Source: Candidatus Woesearchaeota archaeon (lineage in GTDB: Archaea > Nanobdellota > Nanobdellia > SCGC-AAA011-G17 > CAZHCT01). From it: a DNA stretch of 31,970 bases. Of the stretch, positions 17,657-31,324 are shown one piece after another. Position numbers and translations under genes: made by a program. Location: contig CAZHCT010000002.1 of assembly GCA_964531355.1 (NCBI GenBank), positions 1 to 31,970 of the forward strand. The letters run 5' to 3'. Every line of letters begins with the position of its first letter. Positions within the stretch are counted from its first letter, which is position 1. The notes under the pieces were generated by a model. That model ran no database searches. It saw nothing but the letters and a program-made list of their open reading frames with translations, and had not been told where the DNA came from.

Positions 17657-18364
17657 ATGCAATTAAGCAAACTTGAGAATAGGGTTTATGAAGAACTGAA
17701 AAAGAACAAATTTATCGCATTTAAAATCAGAGATTTGAGCTTGCTGCTGAATCTAAGCAGAACAAAAGCTTACAATATTGTGAAGGCTCTTAAAAGAAAG
17801 CAGGCAATAGAGAGAATTGGGAAGAATTTTTTTGCACTAAGAGAAATGAATGATATTGTCATTGGCCAAACTATCCATTACCCTTCTTACCTTTCTTTCT
17901 GGTCTGCTTTGAACTATTACGGATTTTCTGACCAAACCCCAAAGAAAATATTTTTTGCCACAACAAAATATGCAAAGGAAATTAATAATTTTAAATATGT
18001 AACATTATCAAAGAAAAGATTTTTTGGCTATGAAAGAATAGGAGAATTAACAATTGCGGAAAAAGAAAAGGCGATTATAGACTCTTTGCTATTCCCAAAA
18101 TATTCCGGGGGAATCAGAGAAATAAACGCGGTTTTAAGAACAGGTTTGAAACAGATAAATATTAAAAGATTGATAAATTATGCCTTTAAAGTTGAGAGCA
18201 AAGCAGTTTTAAGAAGACTTGGTTTCATTCTTGAAACACTAAATTATAAAAAAGAGTTAAAAAAGATAAGAGAAAACATAGGCAGGGGCTATGAATTGCT
18301 AGATCCCGCTTTAAAAAGAAAAAATAATTTAAATAAAAAATGGCTTTTAGATGTGAACTGGTAA
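17657..18364 (+). CDS. abiEi: AbiEi-like type IV antitoxin / transcriptional regulator
   Basis: N-terminal wHTH; YPSYLSFWSALNYYGFSDQTP; AEKEKAIIDSL; RRLGFILE. Confidence 0.85.
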   Translation: MQLSKLENRVYEELKKNKFIAFKIRDLSLLLNLSRTKAYNIVKALKRKQAIERIGKNFFALREMNDIVIGQTIHYPSYLSFWSALNYYGFSDQTPKKIFFATTKYAKEINNFKYVTLSKKRFFGYERIGELTIAEKEKAIIDSLLFPKYSGGIREINAVLRTGLKQINIKRLINYAFKVESKAVLRRLGFILETLNYKKELKKIRENIGRGYELLDPALKRKNNLNKKWLLDVNW

Positions 18365-18365
18365 A

Positions 18366-19112
18366 ATGATCCTAATAGAAGAGCTTAATCAAATTAAAGA
18401 AGCAAAAAAGACAAATTCATACTATGAAGAAAAGGAATACCTGCAATATATTTTTCTTAATGCTATTTCTAAATATCCCGATAATTTTGTCTTTAAGGGG
18501 GGAACATGCTTGAAAATATGTTTTGGTCTTGAAAGAGCATCAGAAGATTTAGACTTCAGCACCAGTTTTAAGATTGATAAACTTAAAGAAGTTGTTTATA
18601 AATGCTTAAAAGATTTTGAGTTGCTTAATATAAATTATGAGATTTATTCAGAAAGAGAGTTTGAAGGCAATTTAAGATTTGAGATTAGATTTAAAGGCCC
18701 TTTATTCCAAGGACATGCAAAATCAACAAACACCCTGAAGATAGATTTCAACAAAAGAAATGTTAAAAATAAAATAATTAAAGTTATCCAAAAATTGTTT
18801 TCTGATGTGCCTTTATTCAGCATAGTTGTTTTAGATGAAAAAGAGATTCTCGCGGAAAAAATAAGGGCTTTAATTAATAGAGCAGAATCAAGAGATTTAT
18901 ATGATATATGGATGCTCTTAAATAAAGGAATAAAAATAGACAGAAAGCTTTTAATTATAAAATTAAATGAGGAAAAAAGCAAATTTTCTAATTTAAGATT
19001 TCCTTCAAAAGAGGAATATGAAAGAGATTTAAAAAATTTAGTTAAGACACTGCCATCTTACGAGCAAGTAAAGAAAGAAGTTTCAAAAGAATTTGATAAG
19101 ATTGCGCATTAA
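18366..19112 (+). CDS. abiEii: AbiEii-family nucleotidyltransferase toxin
   Basis: FVFKGGTCL...RASEDLDF; EILAEKIRAL...RDLYDIW. Confidence 0.92.
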   Translation: MILIEELNQIKEAKKTNSYYEEKEYLQYIFLNAISKYPDNFVFKGGTCLKICFGLERASEDLDFSTSFKIDKLKEVVYKCLKDFELLNINYEIYSEREFEGNLRFEIRFKGPLFQGHAKSTNTLKIDFNKRNVKNKIIKVIQKLFSDVPLFSIVVLDEKEILAEKIRALINRAESRDLYDIWMLLNKGIKIDRKLLIIKLNEEKSKFSNLRFPSKEEYERDLKNLVKTLPSYEQVKKEVSKEFDKIAH

Positions 19113-22862: not shown

Positions 22863-24038
22863 ATGAAATTTGCGCATTTAGCTGACTGCCATTTAGGGGG
22901 GTGGAGAGAACAGGAATTAAGAGACTTGAATATAGAAACATTCCAAAAAGCAATAGAGTTTTGCATTAAAGAAAATGTTGCTTTTGTCCTGATTTCCGGA
23001 GATTTGCTGAATACTTCTATTCCTTCAATTGAGCTGTTAAAAGGGGTAGCTCAGAATCTGGGGGAATTAAGAAACAATAATATTTCTGTTTATGTTATTC
23101 CTGGAAGCCATGATTTTTCCCCTTCTGGAAAGACAATGCTTGATGTTTTGGAAAAAGCTGATTTGATAGAGAATGTTGTCAAGCTAAAAGAGAATAAATT
23201 AGAGTTTACCTTGGATAAGACGAACACAAAGATTACTGGATTGTACGGGAAGAAGGGGGCATTGGAGAAAAATGAATATGAATTATTAGACAAGAAAAAT
23301 TTAGAAGATGAAAAGGGATTTAAAATATTTATGTTTCATACTGCCATAGATGAATTCAAAACTGATGAAAATTTAAAAGGAATAAAGTTTGATTTTCTGC
23401 CCAAGAATTTTGATTATTATGCTGGAGGGCATGTTCATTATATATTTAACAAAAAAGTTGGCAATAGCATAGTTGCATTTCCAGGTCCATTATTTCCAAA
23501 TAATTTTTTAGAGATTGAGGAATTGAAAAATGGCGGTTTTTATTTAGTGAATGTTAAAGATGATGTTAAAGTAGAATATGTTCCTATAAAGATTAAAGAG
23601 GTTTTAAGCTTGAATATAGATGCTAATGGAAAAAGCGCAAAAGATGTTGAAAGAGATATTTTAGATAATGCTGAGGATATTAAAGACAAGATAATCACGT
23701 TAAGAGTTGCTGGAACATTAGAAAGCGGAAAACCTTCTGATATTGATTTTAAATTAATCTTGGAGAAATTTAAAGACAGTTTTATTGTTTTGAGAAATAC
23801 TTCCAAGTTAACAACAAAGGAATTTGAAGAGTTTGAGATTAAAGCTGAAACAGTGGACGAGGTTGAAAATGCCATAATAAATGAGCATAAATCAAAGATG
23901 AAATTATTTGATGATGAGAAAGAAGCTGTTCATTTGCTGATTAATGCCCTGGATAAAGAGAAGATTGAAGGAGAGAAAAATATTGATTTTCAGAACAGGG
24001 TAATAAAAGACATAATAAAGGTGTTAAATGTTAATTAA
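22863..24038 (+). CDS. mre11: Mre11-like DNA repair nuclease
   Basis: Phosphoesterase motifs AHLADCHLG, SGDLL, PGSHDF, MFHT, AGGHVH; directly upstream of rad50. Confidence 0.92.
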   Translation: MKFAHLADCHLGGWREQELRDLNIETFQKAIEFCIKENVAFVLISGDLLNTSIPSIELLKGVAQNLGELRNNNISVYVIPGSHDFSPSGKTMLDVLEKADLIENVVKLKENKLEFTLDKTNTKITGLYGKKGALEKNEYELLDKKNLEDEKGFKIFMFHTAIDEFKTDENLKGIKFDFLPKNFDYYAGGHVHYIFNKKVGNSIVAFPGPLFPNNFLEIEELKNGGFYLVNVKDDVKVEYVPIKIKEVLSLNIDANGKSAKDVERDILDNAEDIKDKIITLRVAGTLESGKPSDIDFKLILEKFKDSFIVLRNTSKLTTKEFEEFEIKAETVDEVENAIINEHKSKMKLFDDEKEAVHLLINALDKEKIEGEKNIDFQNRVIKDIIKVLNVN

Positions 24039-26070
24039 AAGAATTAAACTGCAGAATATAAGGAGTTTTTTAGAGCAGGATATAAATTTTGGAAACGGGA
24101 GTGTTTTGCTCAGCGGTGATGTTGGAGCTGGAAAAAGTTCTGTATTATTGGCAATTGATTTTGCTTTATTTGGATTGGGAAGAGGAGCATTAAGCGGGGC
24201 TTCTTTATTGAGAAATGGAAAGAAAAATGGTTTTGTTGAGTTAAATTTTGAAATTGACGGGAAAAATATAATAATAAAAAGAACATTGAAAAGAGAAGCA
24301 AATGTCAACCAAGATTCTGGATATATAATAATTGACAATATAAAAAAAGAATTAACACCAATGGAATTAAAGCAGGTTATATTAAATTTATTGAATTATC
24401 CTGGAGAGTTATTGACAAAAAACAAGTCGTTGATTTACAGGTATACTGTTTACACCCCTCAAGAAGAGATGAAGAGGATTTTGTTGGAGGACAGAGAATT
24501 AAGATTGGATATATTAAGAAGGGTTTTTGGAATTGACAAGTACAAAAGAGTAAAAGAAAATGCAGATATTGCCATAAGTTTTTTAAAAGACAAGAGAAAA
24601 GAATTAGATGTTAAAATTTCAGATTTAGATGAATTGAAAAAAGAGATTGATGAAAGCAGAGAAAAAAGCAGATTAATTGCCAAAGATATTTCTGAATTAA
24701 GCAAAGAAATTGAAAGAGATAATATTCTATTGGATGAGAGAAAAAATGCGGTTTTGAAATTGGAGAAGGATATTGGAAAATTGATTGAACTAAAAAAACA
24801 ATTTGAGATTAATGAAAACAATGTAAATTACAAATCAAGAGAGTTTAATGAATTTAGTATAGAGATTAAAGATATAGAAAAACAAATTGAAAAATTAAGA
24901 ATAGAGGTTAAAGATAAGGTTGATGTAAATGAAGATGAAATAAAGGAGAATGAAAAAAAGATTAATGAAATAGAGAGAAATATAAGAGAAATTGATTTAA
25001 TAATGCAGGATTTGAAAACAAAGAAAGCGCATTCAATTGAAATAATCAACAGGGTAAAAACAATGGATAAATGCCCTTTATGCATGCAGAATGTTGATGA
25101 CAAGCATAAAGAAGATGTAATTAATCAAGAAAATTCAAAAATCAAGGAATTTGAGGAAAAAATAAAGGATAATAATAAAGAAGAATTGCAGAAAATAATC
25201 AAGGAATTAAAAGAAAAAAATGAATTAGCAAAAAAAGAAATGCATAGAGCAGAAATTATAAATTTAAAAATAAATAATTTAAATGAGCTTGAAAAAAGAA
25301 AAGAAAAAATCAAAGGTTTAATGGAAAAAACAAAGAAAGAGATTGAAGAATTAAATTCAAGAAAAATTAAGCTGAATGAAGAGATCGATGAGTTTAAGGA
25401 TGCTGAAACAAAGCATAATAAAGAAAAACAAGAATTAGAGAATATAAGAGAGATTATCCAGGAAAAGCAGATTGAAAAAGCTGGTTTTGAAAAAGAGCTT
25501 AAGACTTTTAATGTTAAAATAGAGAAATTAGAAAAAGAGATTAATGAGAAATTAAAGTTTAAAGAGAAAATAGGATATATAAGCAATTTGGAAGAATGGA
25601 TTAAGGAATATTTTGTAAATTTGATTAATATCATGGAGAAAAATATAATGGTTAAAGTGCATAATGATTTTAATACCTTATTCCAGAAGTGGTTTTCTAT
25701 TTTAGTTGATTCTGAATTATTAAAAATAAGGATAGATGAAGAGTTTACACCTTTGATAGAGCAGGCTGGGCATGAGATTGAGTATGATTTTTTATCTGGA
25801 GGAGAGAGAACAGCGGCTGCATTGGCTTATAGATTGGCTTTAAACCAGGTTATTAATTCATTAATATCAACAATAAAAACAAAAGACTTATTGGTATTGG
25901 ATGAGCCTACAGAAGGGTTTAGTTCTGAGCAATTGGATAGAATAAAGCTAATATTGGATGAGCTGAATATGAAGCAGATAATATTAGTAAGCCATGAGAG
26001 CAAAATAGAAAGTTTTGTTGACACTATTATCAGATTTGAGAAGAAGGATCATGTTAGTAAAATTATTTAA
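24028..26070 (+). CDS. rad50: Rad50/SbcC-like SMC ATPase
   Basis: Walker A GDVGAGKSS, Q-loop YTPQ, coiled coil with zinc hook CPLC, signature LSGGE, Walker B LDEPT, H-loop VSHE. Confidence 0.93.
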   Translation: MLIKRIKLQNIRSFLEQDINFGNGSVLLSGDVGAGKSSVLLAIDFALFGLGRGALSGASLLRNGKKNGFVELNFEIDGKNIIIKRTLKREANVNQDSGYIIIDNIKKELTPMELKQVILNLLNYPGELLTKNKSLIYRYTVYTPQEEMKRILLEDRELRLDILRRVFGIDKYKRVKENADIAISFLKDKRKELDVKISDLDELKKEIDESREKSRLIAKDISELSKEIERDNILLDERKNAVLKLEKDIGKLIELKKQFEINENNVNYKSREFNEFSIEIKDIEKQIEKLRIEVKDKVDVNEDEIKENEKKINEIERNIREIDLIMQDLKTKKAHSIEIINRVKTMDKCPLCMQNVDDKHKEDVINQENSKIKEFEEKIKDNNKEELQKIIKELKEKNELAKKEMHRAEIINLKINNLNELEKRKEKIKGLMEKTKKEIEELNSRKIKLNEEIDEFKDAETKHNKEKQELENIREIIQEKQIEKAGFEKELKTFNVKIEKLEKEINEKLKFKEKIGYISNLEEWIKEYFVNLINIMEKNIMVKVHNDFNTLFQKWFSILVDSELLKIRIDEEFTPLIEQAGHEIEYDFLSGGERTAAALAYRLALNQVINSLISTIKTKDLLVLDEPTEGFSSEQLDRIKLILDELNMKQIILVSHESKIESFVDTIIRFEKKDHVSKII

Positions 26071-26386: not shown

Positions 26387-26887
26387 TCATCTTGCTAAGG
26401 CTTTTATTCCAGGAATCTCAAGATTATAAACTTCATCATAATAATTATAAACCTCTTTCATTAATTCTTTCACATAAGACTGTCTTTCATTGTTAATGGC
26501 TGTTTCTAATAATTTCAAAGTTCCTTTAGGAGAATTATTAAATTGCTGCATGTAAGTATCTCTTGCAATCGAAAAAAGAATCTGCTGAAAATCTTTATCT
26601 TGTATTCGTTCGGGTAAATCTATTAATAATGCATCTATGCTTGGAGTTATATCTCCTCTTAATGGCAATGTGTATGGTCCTAAATACTTTCCTAAGGATT
26701 CTATCCATTTTGGTATTTGTGTTCTTGCTTTTTTTAATTGGTTAGGGTATAATTGTATTAATCTATCTAATATTACTCCTGACAAGCCGTTTGCAGAAGT
26801 AGACAAAGCAGATAGTTTCTTAGCTGTTGGATTTTGCTCTAGGAAAGATTTGTATTGAGATTTTGAGGTTATTCTATGTTTATTAGA
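26387..26887 (-). repeat. ~500-bp direct repeat encoding the shared C-terminal domain (copy A; copy B at 30044-30544)
   Basis: 143/166 aa identical by manual alignment; 26776-26885 vs 30433-30542 match at 109/110 nt. Confidence 0.95.
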
Positions 26888-27715
26888 TCTTATTGGAATG
26901 TTATACCCCCTCAATAATCTTAAAATACATGATTTAGAAAGTTTAGTCATATTTGCAATATCAATTGAACTTCTGTTTTCCTTAATATAGAGTTCTTCTA
27001 ACTTTTCTTTTGATGGTTTATTTTTTCCTTTTAACAAAAATTCAGATGTTGTTCTTATTGGAATATTATAATCTATCAACCAATTATAGATGGTTCTAGG
27101 ACTAACTCCTATCAATTCTGCGATCTCATATGCAGTTTTATGTTTTTTAATATATAAGTAGACTAATCTTTCTTTAGGGGCTATCTTTTCCTTTTTTAGT
27201 TTAATAGTTCTTATTGGAATATCATAGTCTACTAGCCAATTAGAGATAGTTACATTGTTAACCCCAGTTAATTCAGCAAGCTCGACCATAGTCTTCTTCT
27301 CTTTAATATACCATCTCTCTAATTCTTCCTTAGATAGTTTCTTTCTGCCTTTTAACATAGATTCAGATTTAGTTCTTAAGAGAATCTCCTCTTTTTTTAA
27401 CCAGTTATAGACCGTTACGGGACTCATATTAATAATATTTCCAATTTTATAAATAGTTTTCTTTTCTTTGACATACCATCTTTCTAACTTTTTTTTTGAT
27501 GGTTTTTTTTTGTCTTTTAACTTAGCTTCTGATTTTGTTCTTGTTGGGATATTATATCTCTTTAGCCAAATTACAACACCCCCTGTAGAAATTCCTATCA
27601 TATTTGAGATATCTTCCAAGGTTTTATACCTTACTTCATATTCTCTTCTTAGAAAACTTCCTAGATCTTCTTTAATTTTTTGTTCTACTTCTTGCATTAA
27701 TTTGGTTTTTTCCAT
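26387..27715 (-). CDS. Protein with five ~55-aa HTH repeats plus an uncharacterised 166-aa C-terminal domain
   Basis: Repeat consensus KPSKEELERWYIKE.K...EIA...GVS..TI.NWL..YNIPIRT.SE..LKGK; ATG 27715 (MEKT) parallels the paralogue; track uses TTG 27727. Confidence 0.85.
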   Translation of the reverse strand: MEKTKLMQEVEQKIKEDLGSFLRREYEVRYKTLEDISNMIGISTGGVVIWLKRYNIPTRTKSEAKLKDKKKPSKKKLERWYVKEKKTIYKIGNIINMSPVTVYNWLKKEEILLRTKSESMLKGRKKLSKEELERWYIKEKKTMVELAELTGVNNVTISNWLVDYDIPIRTIKLKKEKIAPKERLVYLYIKKHKTAYEIAELIGVSPRTIYNWLIDYNIPIRTTSEFLLKGKNKPSKEKLEELYIKENRSSIDIANMTKLSKSCILRLLRGYNIPIRSNKHRITSKSQYKSFLEQNPTAKKLSALSTSANGLSGVILDRLIQLYPNQLKKARTQIPKWIESLGKYLGPYTLPLRGDITPSIDALLIDLPERIQDKDFQQILFSIARDTYMQQFNNSPKGTLKLLETAINNERQSYVKELMKEVYNYYDEVYNLEIPGIKALAR

Positions 27716-27723
27716 ACTTTCTC

Positions 27724-30042
27724 TCAAAAACTGATCTCCTTCTCTTTCTGTTTATTTTCCCTCTTATCAATTCTAACTTTTACCTTGGATGAATTGGAGA
27801 AGACTGAATCCATATGCATTTTAAATTGATCTTCTTTTAGTCCCTTCTCGCATGGATTTGATTTTTTCTGAAGACACATCTCATAAATGTTAAAATTGTC
27901 CTTCTCTCTAACAAAGCCTGTCAACTCAGGAACTATTTCAAATCCTAGTTTGGAAGCTCCTTCTTTGTACCTGGACATATCTTTTTCATTAAATGTACTT
28001 CCAGGAAGTGTGATTATTAGATAACCCTCTTTTCTTAAAACTCTATTTGATTCCCTGAAAAATGTTTCTCTTTCTTTTAATTCTTTTTGGGTTTTTCTTT
28101 TTCTTTTGCCAATTTTTTCTTCTATTATTTCTATTCTCTTCAAAGAAAACATTTGATATGCTAAAGAACAAACGGCTAAATCAAAATGCCCATCTTTATA
28201 TGGAATTTTATGAGCTGGTGTTAAATGGTAAGTGCTTTCCTTATGAGCCACTTTCTTAGCCATTTGAATAGCATATGGGTCTATGTCAACACCAACAGTT
28301 GGTTTTCCTAATGACATTGAAAGAATTCCAGGACCACAGCAAATGTCCAATTTTTTTTCTAAATTTATTTTTTCTTCAAGTTTTTCAATTGCTTTTTTTA
28401 CTACTTTTGCGGTATTTCCTTGAAGAGAATTCCAAAAGTCAGTTAAATATAATTTAATAATTTCTTTTTGGATATCTGGATATTTTTTAATGTGTTTTAT
28501 TATTCTTTCTGCTCCTAGATCTCTCCACTTAAGATAGTGATGCGTCACTAAATATCTTGATGATTGAACAGCATTTCTTATTGGCTTTAAGTTTGATACT
28601 TTGCCATTTTCAATTAATTCTAATTCTTCTTTAGAGATTGTAAATCCACTTAATAAGTATCTAATAATTCTTCCCTTGTCTTCTAATAGTCTCTCAATAC
28701 CTTGGTCTATTGTAGGAACATGATTTTTAGCTATTAAACTGTATACTTTTAATTCTTCTTTTTTAAATTCCCCTCTTCTTTGAGATCTTTTTACAGCTTG
28801 ATCAAATGATGAAGGTGTATATGGTTTATCCAAGAATACTATTGTTGTAGCTCTTGTTAAGTCAACTCCTTCATTCATTGTTTCTGTTGTAGCGAATAAT
28901 ACTTTATGATTTTCATCATTTTGGAATTTTTTTCTTATTTTCTCTCTTTCGCTATCTTCTCCATTTTTTCTTGCTGTATCAACATCACCATCTATTACGC
29001 AAGAACCATATTGTTTATATCTTTCTGATAATTTATCTGTAACTCCCTTTTTGAAATGCGAACTAAATACAAGTACTTTTCCATTGTTTTTGGTTTCTTC
29101 TTCTATTATCTTATCTAATTTCTTGTATTTGCAGGATTCTGCTGTTTTTAGTCTTTTTTTAAGTTCTGGGTCAGCTATATATTTTGGATCAACTAGCGAT
29201 GGATCTAATGAAGCTTTTAATAAAACCTTTAATTTTGTTTCAACAGAAATATTATCATTATTATACACCTCCGTGTAAATTTTTTCATGATCTTCTGTTA
29301 ATCTTACTTCTAGATCTTTATATTCTACTTTAGGAACTTCTTTTTTAATATAATCTTCTGCTAATCTTCTTAATTTCTTTTCACCGAATACTTTTTTAAC
29401 AGCTTCTGGATCTGTTTTATAGATGTTATAAAATAATCTTAAGATTTTTGAGCTACTTCCAAAATCCATTTTATATTTTTTTGGATCAATCAAGCTCATT
29501 ATCATATACATATCAACAATGCTATTTGGGATGGGTGTACCGCTAAGTAGAGCTAAATATTCTGAATTGTCTACAATCTCTTTAACAGATCTTGTTCTGT
29601 AAGCTTCAGGATTTTTGGCATTATGGATTTCGTCTCCGATAGTATAATCAAATTTCACTTTTTTAAGCTCATTAAGAATTTTCATCCCCCTCTTAGAATT
29701 TCTCATTGAGAGCAAGTCATAATTTATGATTACAAAATCAGATTCTTTAGCTTGTTTTACTATCTTATCGAGATCTTCGTATTTAATATTACTATCAATA
29801 GTAAGAATATTAGCATTTTCTTTGTAATACCACTTTTTAATTTCATTTTCCCAATGTTCTTTAACAGAATTAGGGCAAATGACTAAAGTTGAAATGTTTT
29901 TATTTTTCTGTTTTTCTATCAAAGATTTTGCCATGATTGCTTGAGCGGTTTTGCCAACGCCCATCTCATCAGCTAATAAGGACCTTTTATTATCCACAAT
30001 ATATTTTGCTCCAATTATTTGATAAGGGTTTGCTTCTTTCAT
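27724..30042 (-). CDS. SNF2/SWI2-family helicase-like ATPase fused to a C-terminal class I SAM-dependent methyltransferase
   Basis: LADEMGVGKT, LVICPNSV, IGDEIH, LSGTPIPN, MNEGVDLT, QAVKRSQRRG; then LDICCGPG, VGVDID, IPYKDGHFDLAVCSL. Confidence 0.92.
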   Translation of the reverse strand: MKEANPYQIIGAKYIVDNKRSLLADEMGVGKTAQAIMAKSLIEKQKNKNISTLVICPNSVKEHWENEIKKWYYKENANILTIDSNIKYEDLDKIVKQAKESDFVIINYDLLSMRNSKRGMKILNELKKVKFDYTIGDEIHNAKNPEAYRTRSVKEIVDNSEYLALLSGTPIPNSIVDMYMIMSLIDPKKYKMDFGSSSKILRLFYNIYKTDPEAVKKVFGEKKLRRLAEDYIKKEVPKVEYKDLEVRLTEDHEKIYTEVYNNDNISVETKLKVLLKASLDPSLVDPKYIADPELKKRLKTAESCKYKKLDKIIEEETKNNGKVLVFSSHFKKGVTDKLSERYKQYGSCVIDGDVDTARKNGEDSEREKIRKKFQNDENHKVLFATTETMNEGVDLTRATTIVFLDKPYTPSSFDQAVKRSQRRGEFKKEELKVYSLIAKNHVPTIDQGIERLLEDKGRIIRYLLSGFTISKEELELIENGKVSNLKPIRNAVQSSRYLVTHHYLKWRDLGAERIIKHIKKYPDIQKEIIKLYLTDFWNSLQGNTAKVVKKAIEKLEEKINLEKKLDICCGPGILSMSLGKPTVGVDIDPYAIQMAKKVAHKESTYHLTPAHKIPYKDGHFDLAVCSLAYQMFSLKRIEIIEEKIGKRKRKTQKELKERETFFRESNRVLRKEGYLIITLPGSTFNEKDMSRYKEGASKLGFEIVPELTGFVREKDNFNIYEMCLQKKSNPCEKGLKEDQFKMHMDSVFSNSSKVKVRIDKRENKQKEKEISF

Positions 30043-30043
30043 T

Positions 30044-31216
30044 TTAATTTCGTAAAGGTTTTATACCTGGAATCTCAAGATTATAAACATCTGAATAATA
30101 TTGATAAACTTGTTTTTTCAATTCTTTTATATAAGACTGTTTTTCATTATCTACAGCTATTTCTAGTGATTTTAAAGTTCCTTTAGGAGAATCATTAAAT
30201 TGCTGCATGTAAGTATCTCTTACAATTGAAAAAATAATTTGTTGAAAGTCATCATCTTTTATCTGCTCTGGTAAGTCTGTTAATAATGCATCTATACTTG
30301 GAGTTATATCTCCTCTTAATGGTAGAGTATATGGTCCTAAGTATTTTCCCAAGGATTCTATCCATTTTGGTATTTGTGTTCTTGCTTTTTTTAATTGATT
30401 AGGATATAACTGTATTAGTCTATCTAAAATAGCTCCTGACAAGCCGTTTGCAGAAGTAGACAAAGCAGATAGTTTCTTAGCTGTTGGATTTTGCTCTATG
30501 AAAGATTTGTATTGAGATTTTGAGGTTATTCTATGTTTATTACTTCGGATTGGAATATTATACTGTTTTAGCCATCTTACGATAGTTGGACCGGAAACAC
30601 CTATCATCTCTGCTATCTCATAAGTATTTTTATTCTCTTTAATATACCATTTTTCTAATTCTTCCTTAGATGGTTTTTTCTTGCCTTTCAGTTGGATTTC
30701 TGATATTGTTCTTAGCTTAATATTATAATCTTTTAGCCAATTTCCGATAGTTGAATTAGTCACTTTGAGTATATCTGCAATTTCAATTGTGGTTTTATTC
30801 TCCTTGAGATATAATCTCTTTAATTCTTCCTTAGATGGTTTTTTCTTTCCTTTTAACATAGCTTCTGATGTTGTTCTTGTTAGAATGTTATATTCTTTCA
30901 ACCATTTTCCAATGCACGTATCACTAACCCCTATCATATCTGCTATCTCATAAGTATTTTTATTCTCTTTAATATACCATCTTTCTAATTCTTCTTTTGA
31001 TGGTTTCTTTTTTCCTTTCAATTTAGTTTCCGATAATGTTCTTATGGGAATGTTGTACCTTATTAACCATCCACAAATGGTACTTATATCCACTCCCACT
31101 TTACTAGCAATTTTAGTTGTACTTTGATATTTTTTGACATAGGTTTTTCTAAGAAAACTTTCTAAATCCTCCCCAATCCTCTTTTCTATTTCAAGCATTC
31201 TCCTAGTTTTTTCCAT
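30044..31216 (-). CDS. Protein with four ~55-aa HTH repeats plus the same C-terminal domain (paralogue of 26387-27715)
   Basis: Repeats start at aa ~21, 70, 125 and 180; a 42-nt block is identical between repeats 2 and 4 (30939-30980 = 30609-30650). Confidence 0.88.
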   Translation of the reverse strand: MEKTRRMLEIEKRIGEDLESFLRKTYVKKYQSTTKIASKVGVDISTICGWLIRYNIPIRTLSETKLKGKKKPSKEELERWYIKENKNTYEIADMIGVSDTCIGKWLKEYNILTRTTSEAMLKGKKKPSKEELKRLYLKENKTTIEIADILKVTNSTIGNWLKDYNIKLRTISEIQLKGKKKPSKEELEKWYIKENKNTYEIAEMIGVSGPTIVRWLKQYNIPIRSNKHRITSKSQYKSFIEQNPTAKKLSALSTSANGLSGAILDRLIQLYPNQLKKARTQIPKWIESLGKYLGPYTLPLRGDITPSIDALLTDLPEQIKDDDFQQIIFSIVRDTYMQQFNDSPKGTLKSLEIAVDNEKQSYIKELKKQVYQYYSDVYNLEIPGIKPLRN

Positions 31217-31324
31217 TTTCTTTATGGTCTTTTTGATATTTTTAAGCCTTTCTATTCATAACTACTTTATAGTTATAAACTATTAAACCTTAACTTTAAA
31301 TATCTAAAATTTATGTTAAAATAA

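Follow-up and report, generated by a model that had tools for sequence, protein, structure and literature searches.

Why an archaeal genome should keep two paralogous helix-turn-helix (HTH) proteins on either side of one enzyme that joins an SNF2 ATPase to a methyltransferase is the question raised by a three-gene locus of a Candidatus Woesearchaeota archaeon. The locus lies on contig CAZHCT010000002.1, which was analysed at its full length of 31,970 bp (hereafter the window) and whose parent genome measures 743 kb, is 89% complete and has a G+C content of about 28%. On the minus strand the gene of one array protein (adaptor A) comes first, followed by the gene of the SNF2-class I methyltransferase fusion (SM) and by that of the second array protein (adaptor B). 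Because one to three copies of such proteins, with differing DNA-binding arrays on a shared C-terminal domain (CTD), accompany SM, we hold with modest confidence that they are interchangeable targeting adaptors of a single motor-methylase, docking through the CTD in a manner resembling HsdS of Type I restriction-modification (R-M) systems. The genes, delimited by their open reading frames (ORFs), and the region upstream of them are as follows (aa, amino acids).

30044..31216, minus strand: adaptor A gene (P0001), ORF of 390 aa, four HTH repeats and the CTD
27724..30042, minus strand: SNF2-methyltransferase fusion gene SM (P0002), ORF of 772 aa with Pfam support
26387..27715, minus strand: adaptor B gene, ORF of 442 aa from ATG 27715, five HTH repeats and the CTD
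31217..31324, no strand assigned: A/T-rich intergenic region between the adaptor A gene and a divergent Sua5/YrdC-type gene, sequence read directly

Direct reading of the junctions bore out the tight arrangement described in the initial annotation of this DNA, with 1 nt between adaptor A and SM (TAA-a-ATG) and, given a start of adaptor B at ATG 27715, 8 nt between SM and adaptor B (TGA-gagaaagt-ATG). A TTG at 27727 is an alternative start of adaptor B and yields 446 aa; a 442-aa database record (P0219) matches the ATG start. The domain content claimed for the three genes, that is, four HTH repeats with the CTD, SNF2 with a class I methyltransferase, and five HTH repeats with the CTD, was likewise recovered from the ORFs, Pfam and the repeat alignment. 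Upstream of the unit, the A/T-rich stretch between adaptor A and its divergent neighbor, the latter labeled Sua5 from Pfam, carries a TATA-like TTAAAAATA about 25 nt 5' of ATG 31216 and is probably the promoter of all three genes. Since the same layout recurs in independent metagenomes, it is far beyond what chance would produce. The initial annotation had not recognized this three-part layout, and in fact neither a description of the module nor a system-level match was found in the literature and the defence catalogues searched (PADLOC, also NCBIfam and PHROGs).

The two flanking proteins combine a nearly constant tail with a variable front, as seen from the following segments.

30047..30544, minus strand: CTD of adaptor A (P0004), residues 225-390, all-alpha domain, proposed docking module
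26390..26887, minus strand: CTD of adaptor B, 87% identical to the CTD of adaptor A
30542..31216, minus strand: HTH array A, residues 1-225, four 55-aa repeats ending in WLxxYNIPxR[TS], from the repeat alignment
26888..27715, minus strand: HTH array B, five repeats, one more than array A, from the repeat alignment
30433..30542 versus 26776-26885, minus strand: 110-nt near-identical block at the array/CTD junction, one mismatch in the nucleotide alignment

The CTD spans 166 aa, and its protein identity of 87% between adaptors A and B agrees with the 86% first reported; at the DNA level the CTDs are 77-98% identical. The arrays do differ in repeat number and sequence, as had been proposed, with four units of 55 aa in adaptor A against five of 52-55 aa in adaptor B and a DNA identity of 40-82%. 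The 110-nt block at the boundary suggests either gene conversion or very strong constraint. Pairwise identity among the nine aligned HTH units ranges from 25 to 74%, and the variation between repeats peaks right after the GVS turn and right before WL, corresponding to the start and the end of the recognition helix. The flanking proteins score 63.3 and 44.3 bits with Pfam HTH_23 (cut-off 24.6) and 43.1 and 41.9 bits with HTH_28, and their tri-helical units, which lie above the Pfam threshold, are predicted to bind DNA. The best PHROG matches of these repeats are phage HNH endonuclease families (PHROG 8446/7545; phrog_8446, E 1.6e-40), and units of the Pfam HNH_repeat type (PF18780) are found in the adaptors of some relatives; unlike the phage homing endonucleases, however, the arrays of the module end in the CTD and have no nuclease domain attached. 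Across the family the adaptor N-termini vary between HTH arrays, HNH_repeat units of the homing-endonuclease type and unassigned repeats or sequence, and the Pfam families recognized in them (in about 27 of 89 representatives) are all DNA-binding, of HTH types.

The CTD itself resembles nothing in the collections searched. An AlphaFold2 model displayed nine helices with a confidence (pLDDT) of 87.8; neither the PDB nor the BFVD collection of viral structures gave a significant match (best E about 0.6-0.9, TM-score below 0.3), and no family was matched in Pfam, NCBIfam, PADLOC or PHROG. In a word-indexed search among proteins, the CTD region retrieved nothing but the two window proteins and one fragment, and a scan of 1.8 billion representative proteins yielded 94 homologue clusters. 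In the homologues listed (172-675 aa) the domain is C-terminal, save in P0078, an 866-aa SM homologue in which it occupies residues 5-151, immediately ahead of the SNF2 domain.

In order to follow the CTD and SM across genomes, 19 non-redundant SM loci from ultra-small archaea, taken from assemblies, metagenome contigs and species-representative genomes, were scanned with hidden Markov models (HMMs) of the CTD, of each half of SM (SNF2 and methyltransferase) and of a glycosylase-like partner considered below. In 16 of the 19 loci one to three CTD genes lie directly beside SM on the same strand, upstream, downstream or on both sides of it, mostly overlapping or a few bases off, and the sandwich layout of the window is also found in L096, L097, L101, L103 and L104. 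The CTD and SM genes have stayed adjacent in six SM clades whose gene orders differ. CTD paralogues of one locus share 42-87% identity, compared with an average of 27% between different loci. Likewise, a sample of 401 genomes of the phylum contained a strong CTD match in five, in four of which the CTD gene abuts an SNF2(-methyltransferase) gene (truncated in one case), the fifth lying at a contig end; hence every assessable strong match stands beside such a gene. The co-occurrence that the initial annotation had proposed to examine by a CTD profile search is thus present, and the outcome that would have spoken against it, a CTD mostly away from the SNF2-methyltransferase, is not what the 19 loci and 401 genomes display.

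These results bear on the simplest alternative, in which both flanking genes encode HTH regulators acting on their own, or remnants of mobile elements, and in which the CTD serves oligomerization or ligand binding and makes no contact with the motor. In its favor, the HTH repeats are similar to those found in transposases, terminases and homing endonucleases, but adjacency retained in six clades despite different gene orders, the natural CTD-SNF2 fusion in P0078 and the lack of any strong CTD match away from an SNF2 gene, wherever the context was readable, make it highly improbable. The docking of adaptors, on the other hand, would account for genes kept close together, for a tail that stays constant while the number of copies varies, for the natural fusion and for the DNA-binding character of the variable parts, and it is on these four features that we base it.

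We hypothesize that the three genes encode one machine, consisting of an SNF2 ATPase that would track along double-stranded DNA, a helical linker and a methyltransferase of the Rrp8/Bud23 type. DNA sequence would be read by the tandem HTH repeats, which resemble those of phage homing endonucleases, and the shared all-alpha CTD would attach the adaptor to the SNF2 motor, at its N-terminus or close to it, so that the adaptor would carry the motor-methylase to selected sites on the DNA. There, ATP hydrolysis would shift or open the DNA and the methyltransferase would modify a nearby substrate, presumably nucleic acid at the target site. The arrangement parallels Type I R-M, in which a separate and swappable specificity subunit (HsdS) serves a methyltransferase (HsdM) and an ATP-dependent translocase of superfamily 2 (HsdR), and in particular those Type I loci in which several paralogous hsdS genes lie beside one enzyme. 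Nevertheless, the adaptors are HTH arrays with a new all-alpha tail, in contrast to the target-recognition domains and coiled coils of HsdS, and the flanking proteins match only HTH families, with no HsdS carrying two target-recognition domains and no HsdR nuclease found. Furthermore, motor and methyltransferase form one chain, the motor is of the Snf2 family instead of HsdR and lacks a nuclease domain, and the methyltransferase is without the NPPF/DPPY motif.

Some relatives hint at a different distribution of the docking domain, with the CTD split between adaptor and motor in certain clades. The C-terminus of the L099 adaptor aligns with positions 6-116 of the CTD profile, its N-terminal two-thirds (hhalign probability 79%, E 1.6e-5), and motor N-termini match the C-terminal half weakly (E 0.0016, probability 16%) or not at all; in SM forms of about 1150-1200 aa a weak similarity to that half lies ahead of the motor. 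Two SNF2(-methyltransferase) proteins of about 1150 aa, at L009:2981-6409 (G014) and L010:2182-5649 (G337), have a 290-aa N-terminal extension that weakly resembles the C-terminal half of the CTD, and a glycosylase homologue is encoded close by; Methyltransf_11 is matched in the L009 protein and not in that of L010. Both may represent a fused adaptor tail and motor.

The enzyme on which the adaptors would converge is divided as follows.

28633..30042, minus strand: SNF2 motor, residues 1-470, motifs DEMGVGKT, DEIHNAKN, LSGTPIPN and QAVKRSQRRGE
27823..28485, minus strand: class I S-adenosylmethionine-dependent methyltransferase core, residues 520-740, motif I LDICCGPG, then VDID, FDLAVCSLA and RESNRVLRKEGY

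By its sequence, the SNF2 half is a genuine Snf2-family motor. SM scores 115.7 bits with SNF2-rel_dom (PF00176, cut-off 24.9) and 64.8 bits with Helicase_C (PF00271), motifs I, II (DExH), III and VI are kept in the SM alignment (A2), and the closest solved relative is SSO1653 of Sulfolobus (1z63, E 1.1e-28), followed by ISWI. In the same alignment (columns ~201-210) many homologues display a variant Walker A motif, G[ML][FY]KT instead of GxGKT; the window protein retains GVGKT.

The second half matches Methyltransf_11 (PF08241) with 52.8 bits (cut-off 21.2), motif I and the acidic residue of class I enzymes (expected at the end of strand 2) are intact, and D566, G570 and D586 are invariant or nearly so in the family alignment. 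A model of residues 480-772 (AlphaFold2, pLDDT 90.1) gave more than 1000 matches to the class I fold, with nucleomethylin/Rrp8 (2zfu) and Bud23 (4qtt/4qtu) at the top of the Foldseek list (E 2.5e-10 to 2.4e-9) and 6g4w also among the best. RRP8/nucleomethylin, a chromatin-associated protein, makes 1-methyladenosine (m1A) in large-subunit ribosomal RNA (rRNA), and Bud23/WBSCR22, which works with its partner Trm112, makes 7-methylguanosine (m7G) in 18S rRNA, both being purine methylations. Both enzymes differ from SM in acting on rRNA and in having no DNA motor fused to them, and their identity to the SM domain amounts to only 16-20%. Methyltransf_8 reaches 22.4 bits on SM, under its cut-off of 27, which leaves the likeness to RRP8/Bud23 a structural one below family level; weak Pfam matches to Methyltransf_8 and Bmt2 occur in the family. 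The modelled fold would thus suggest a lead and not an assignment. Motif IV reads FDLAVCSLA across the family, and therefore neither the (D/N/S)PP(Y/F/W) nor the PC motif of DNA amino- and C5-methyltransferases is present in the family alignment; moreover, a Pfam scan of SM returned no match to N6_Mtase, N6_N4_Mtase or DNA_methylase. By its motifs the methyltransferase is accordingly not an enzyme of the DNA type.

The initial annotation had compared the fusion with the SNF2 ATPases and methyltransferases of DISARM and BREX-related loci. As the methyltransferase is not DNA-type and resembles Rrp8/Bud23, this comparison stands for the SNF2 part and fails for the rest. The models of DISARM (DrmD), Zorya (ZorD) and Dpd (DpdE) do score on SM with E from 1e-36 to 1e-20, and these systems share its patchy, accessory distribution; the matches, however, cover the common SNF2 core only and lie far under the curated cut-offs (for DrmD 71.5 bits against 610), and no partner genes of the types DrmA/B/C, PglX/PglZ/BrxC/BrxL, ZorA/B/C or DpdA-C were found. 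On the adaptors PADLOC returned a short HTH match (mad1) and nothing else. Other enzymes join similar activities differently. DNMT5 of fungi and protists is an SNF2-fused cytosine-5 DNA methyltransferase that likewise couples ATP-driven DNA handling to methylation in one polypeptide; its methyltransferase domain is N-terminal to the motor, whereas that of SM is C-terminal, Rrp8/Bud23-like and devoid of PC/ENV motifs, and the adaptors of the module are separate proteins. The polyvalent proteins of the P1 DarB type, to which a weak PHROG match was found (E 4.9e-5), also carry a helicase and a methyltransferase in one protein and are associated with mobile elements, but they are giant proteins with DNA N6-adenine methyltransferases that are delivered with the invading DNA, unlike the 772-aa SM with its different methyltransferase type and its separate adaptors.

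The affinities of the enzyme raise the alternative of a module for gene regulation or chromatin, in which HTH-array transcription factors would recruit a remodeller and the methyltransferase would modify a chromatin protein or the adaptor. For such a role the nearest parallels are eukaryotic SNF2 remodellers that bear SANT/Myb-type DNA-binding modules, and the lysine methylation of archaeal chromatin proteins. The proximity of the motor to SSO1653 and ISWI-type remodellers agrees with it, as do weak matches to the protein methyltransferase PrmA, the chromatin association of nucleomethylin, the top structural match, and the position of most loci among housekeeping genes, with no island markers. 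From a regulator of core chromatin one would nonetheless expect a wide distribution, but nearly all of the relatives searched lack the module, and a DNA-glycosylase homologue encoded in many relatives points to DNA bases and not to proteins. We consequently consider this role decidedly unlikely.

This glycosylase homologue is a member of the AAG/MPG family of 150-220 aa, encoded in the same operon in 13 of the 19 SM loci.

L096:3971-4426, L004:4303-4752, L097:4619-5092, L013:7389-7844 and others: miniature AAG/MPG homologues

PF02245 (Pur_DNA_glyco) matched the two partners tested with 43-44 bits (cut-off 27). The partner is found in three of the six groups of the SM tree, in three different gene orders, and is absent from the clade of the window (the window and L003) and from the SM-first clade. 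Of the 401 genomes, 13 encode the subfamily in full length, and in eight of these 13 an SNF2 gene of the family lies no more than about 2 kb away. No PF02245 match was found anywhere in the window or in its genome; therefore the module either runs without the partner there or the gene is unassembled. The three-part layout accordingly holds for the window and not as the norm of the family, since an AAG-like fourth member is present in the majority of loci. A glycosylase partner as a defining member of the module was considered and rejected, as it is missing from half of the groups of the SM tree, that of the window included, and from the genome. In an alignment of 10 partners with the human enzyme and its E125Q crystal form, the position of the catalytic Glu125 of AAG, within the ETEAY motif, holds Gly (as in ETGAY) or Trp in every partner, and for this reason the partner may bind rather than cut. 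The partners also display apparently Arg at the position of the intercalating Tyr162, and an added conserved NCxGY tail. In L013 the glycosylase-adaptor-SM operon is immediately preceded, on its own strand, by a gene for S-adenosylmethionine synthetase (L013:8003-9220), whose product might be the source of the cofactor, although the placement might equally be accidental.

A more specific reading can be built on this partner, namely a programmable DNA-marking machine in which swappable HTH arrays would steer the ATP-driven motor and its Rrp8/Bud23-like domain would methylate purines in a non-canonical way, such as m1A, m7G or 3-methyladenine (m3A), at selected sites of double-stranded DNA; the Glu-less AAG-like protein would read this mark in most relatives. 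The absence of the partner from the window counts against it, and we regard it as very unlikely.

The distribution of the module introduces a broader alternative. About 90 full-length homologues of the SM fusion were collected, and those that bear a name are labeled Nanoarchaeota, Pacearchaeota or Aenigmatarchaeota. Canonical SM is present in 3 of the 401 genomes of the phylum, and neither SM nor the CTD was found in the 40 nearest relatives searched, a joint absence that agrees with adaptors and enzyme forming one module. A profile scan of contigs with the full SM alignment retrieved mostly generic bacterial SNF2 genes, covered the methyltransferase in L016 only, and gave no statistics. The module is conserved but patchy, and accessory. 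Most loci lie among housekeeping genes; in L096 the order GIY-YIG, glycosylase homologue, adaptor, SM and two adaptors stands between the following markers.

L096:1452-2624: tyrosine integrase
L096:11787-13335: Rep_1 and NikA-like genes

This copy looks like part of an integrated plasmid-like element. Elsewhere, at L012:2738-4512 (G353), the gene of a CTD protein of 277 aa precedes an ORF of 314 aa that has the N-terminal SNF2 lobe only, and the pair is probably a decaying copy of the module.

An antiviral defence related to R-M or to DISARM/BREX, with adaptors setting the specificity, the methyltransferase marking DNA and, in most relatives, the AAG-like protein reading or attacking marked or unmarked DNA, would explain this patchiness and the presence of one locus within an integrated element. 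It would also fit the fast divergence of the DNA-reading repeats, the scores of the SNF2 part against the ZorD, DrmD and DpdE models, and the glycosylase-family partner kept adjacent through changing gene orders. Against such a system stand the methyltransferase without DNA-methyltransferase motifs, the partner devoid of the AAG catalytic residue, the missing DISARM, BREX, Zorya and Dpd genes, the absence of a nuclease or other obvious effector from the window and of a glycosylase homologue from its 89%-complete genome, and the lack of any relative in the scan of viral contigs. Taken in this specific form, we judge antiviral defence to be rather unlikely. In general terms, since the module is patchy and was once found in an integrated element, a role in genetic conflict, either defence or the protection of a mobile element, is weakly favored over housekeeping control of chromatin.

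Several observations weigh against targeting adaptors as we propose them. The 19 loci were drawn partly from one sequence pattern and are not independent, and the HMM scan found no full CTD neighbor of SM in three of them (L099, L100 and L115). CTD and SM identities correlate with r = 0.97, but linked genes share their history, so the correlation reflects co-inheritance and is no evidence of contact. Known enzymes of the same type as the methyltransferase act on RNA, proteins or small molecules, and generic small-molecule class I enzymes trail Rrp8/Bud23 by only about tenfold in E-value. The missing effector, already held against defence, also counts here, and PADLOC offered nothing beyond generic SNF2 models for SM. 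In IMG/VR viral contigs no relative was found, a weak negative given that the patterns came from SNF2 motifs and confirmation from the methyltransferase part.

The remaining neighbors of the module in the window, identified from Pfam, are Mre11, Rad50 with a zinc hook, an archaeal-type RNase J and the Sua5 gene mentioned above. Together with the names borne by the homologues, these neighbors place the window among DPANN-type archaea. The genes for the Mre11-like phosphoesterase and the zinc-hook Rad50 (22863-26070) overlap by 11 nt and are convergent to the module, a pairing seen in this window only. At 17657-19112 a TrmB-like winged HTH gene is followed, after 1 nt, by a gene for an AbiEii nucleotidyltransferase toxin (PF08843, 104 bits), and the two form a predicted type IV toxin-antitoxin pair.

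The window contributes a clean case of two paralogues beside one enzyme, a model of the proposed docking domain, which has no known fold, the CTD-SM fusion, and evidence for one clade in which the module does without the glycosylase-like partner. Should the adaptors prove otherwise, the module would still be a conserved and unannotated gene family deserving a name in the annotation of DPANN archaea, and were the marking of purines in DNA to be true, it would represent a new epigenetic or conflict chemistry in ultra-small archaea. If the array proteins are targeting adaptors, as we favor, a small shared domain would connect interchangeable modular DNA readers with one ATP-driven modifying enzyme, providing a new docking domain and a new class of partners for Snf2 motors outside eukaryotes. 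In that case the HTH arrays, with a constant scaffold and variable recognition positions, may hold a decodable recognition scheme, and the task of an rRNA-type methyltransferase on a DNA motor would become a question of its own. Such adaptors would, furthermore, bear on how genome-reduced symbionts such as the DPANN archaea mark or police their DNA.

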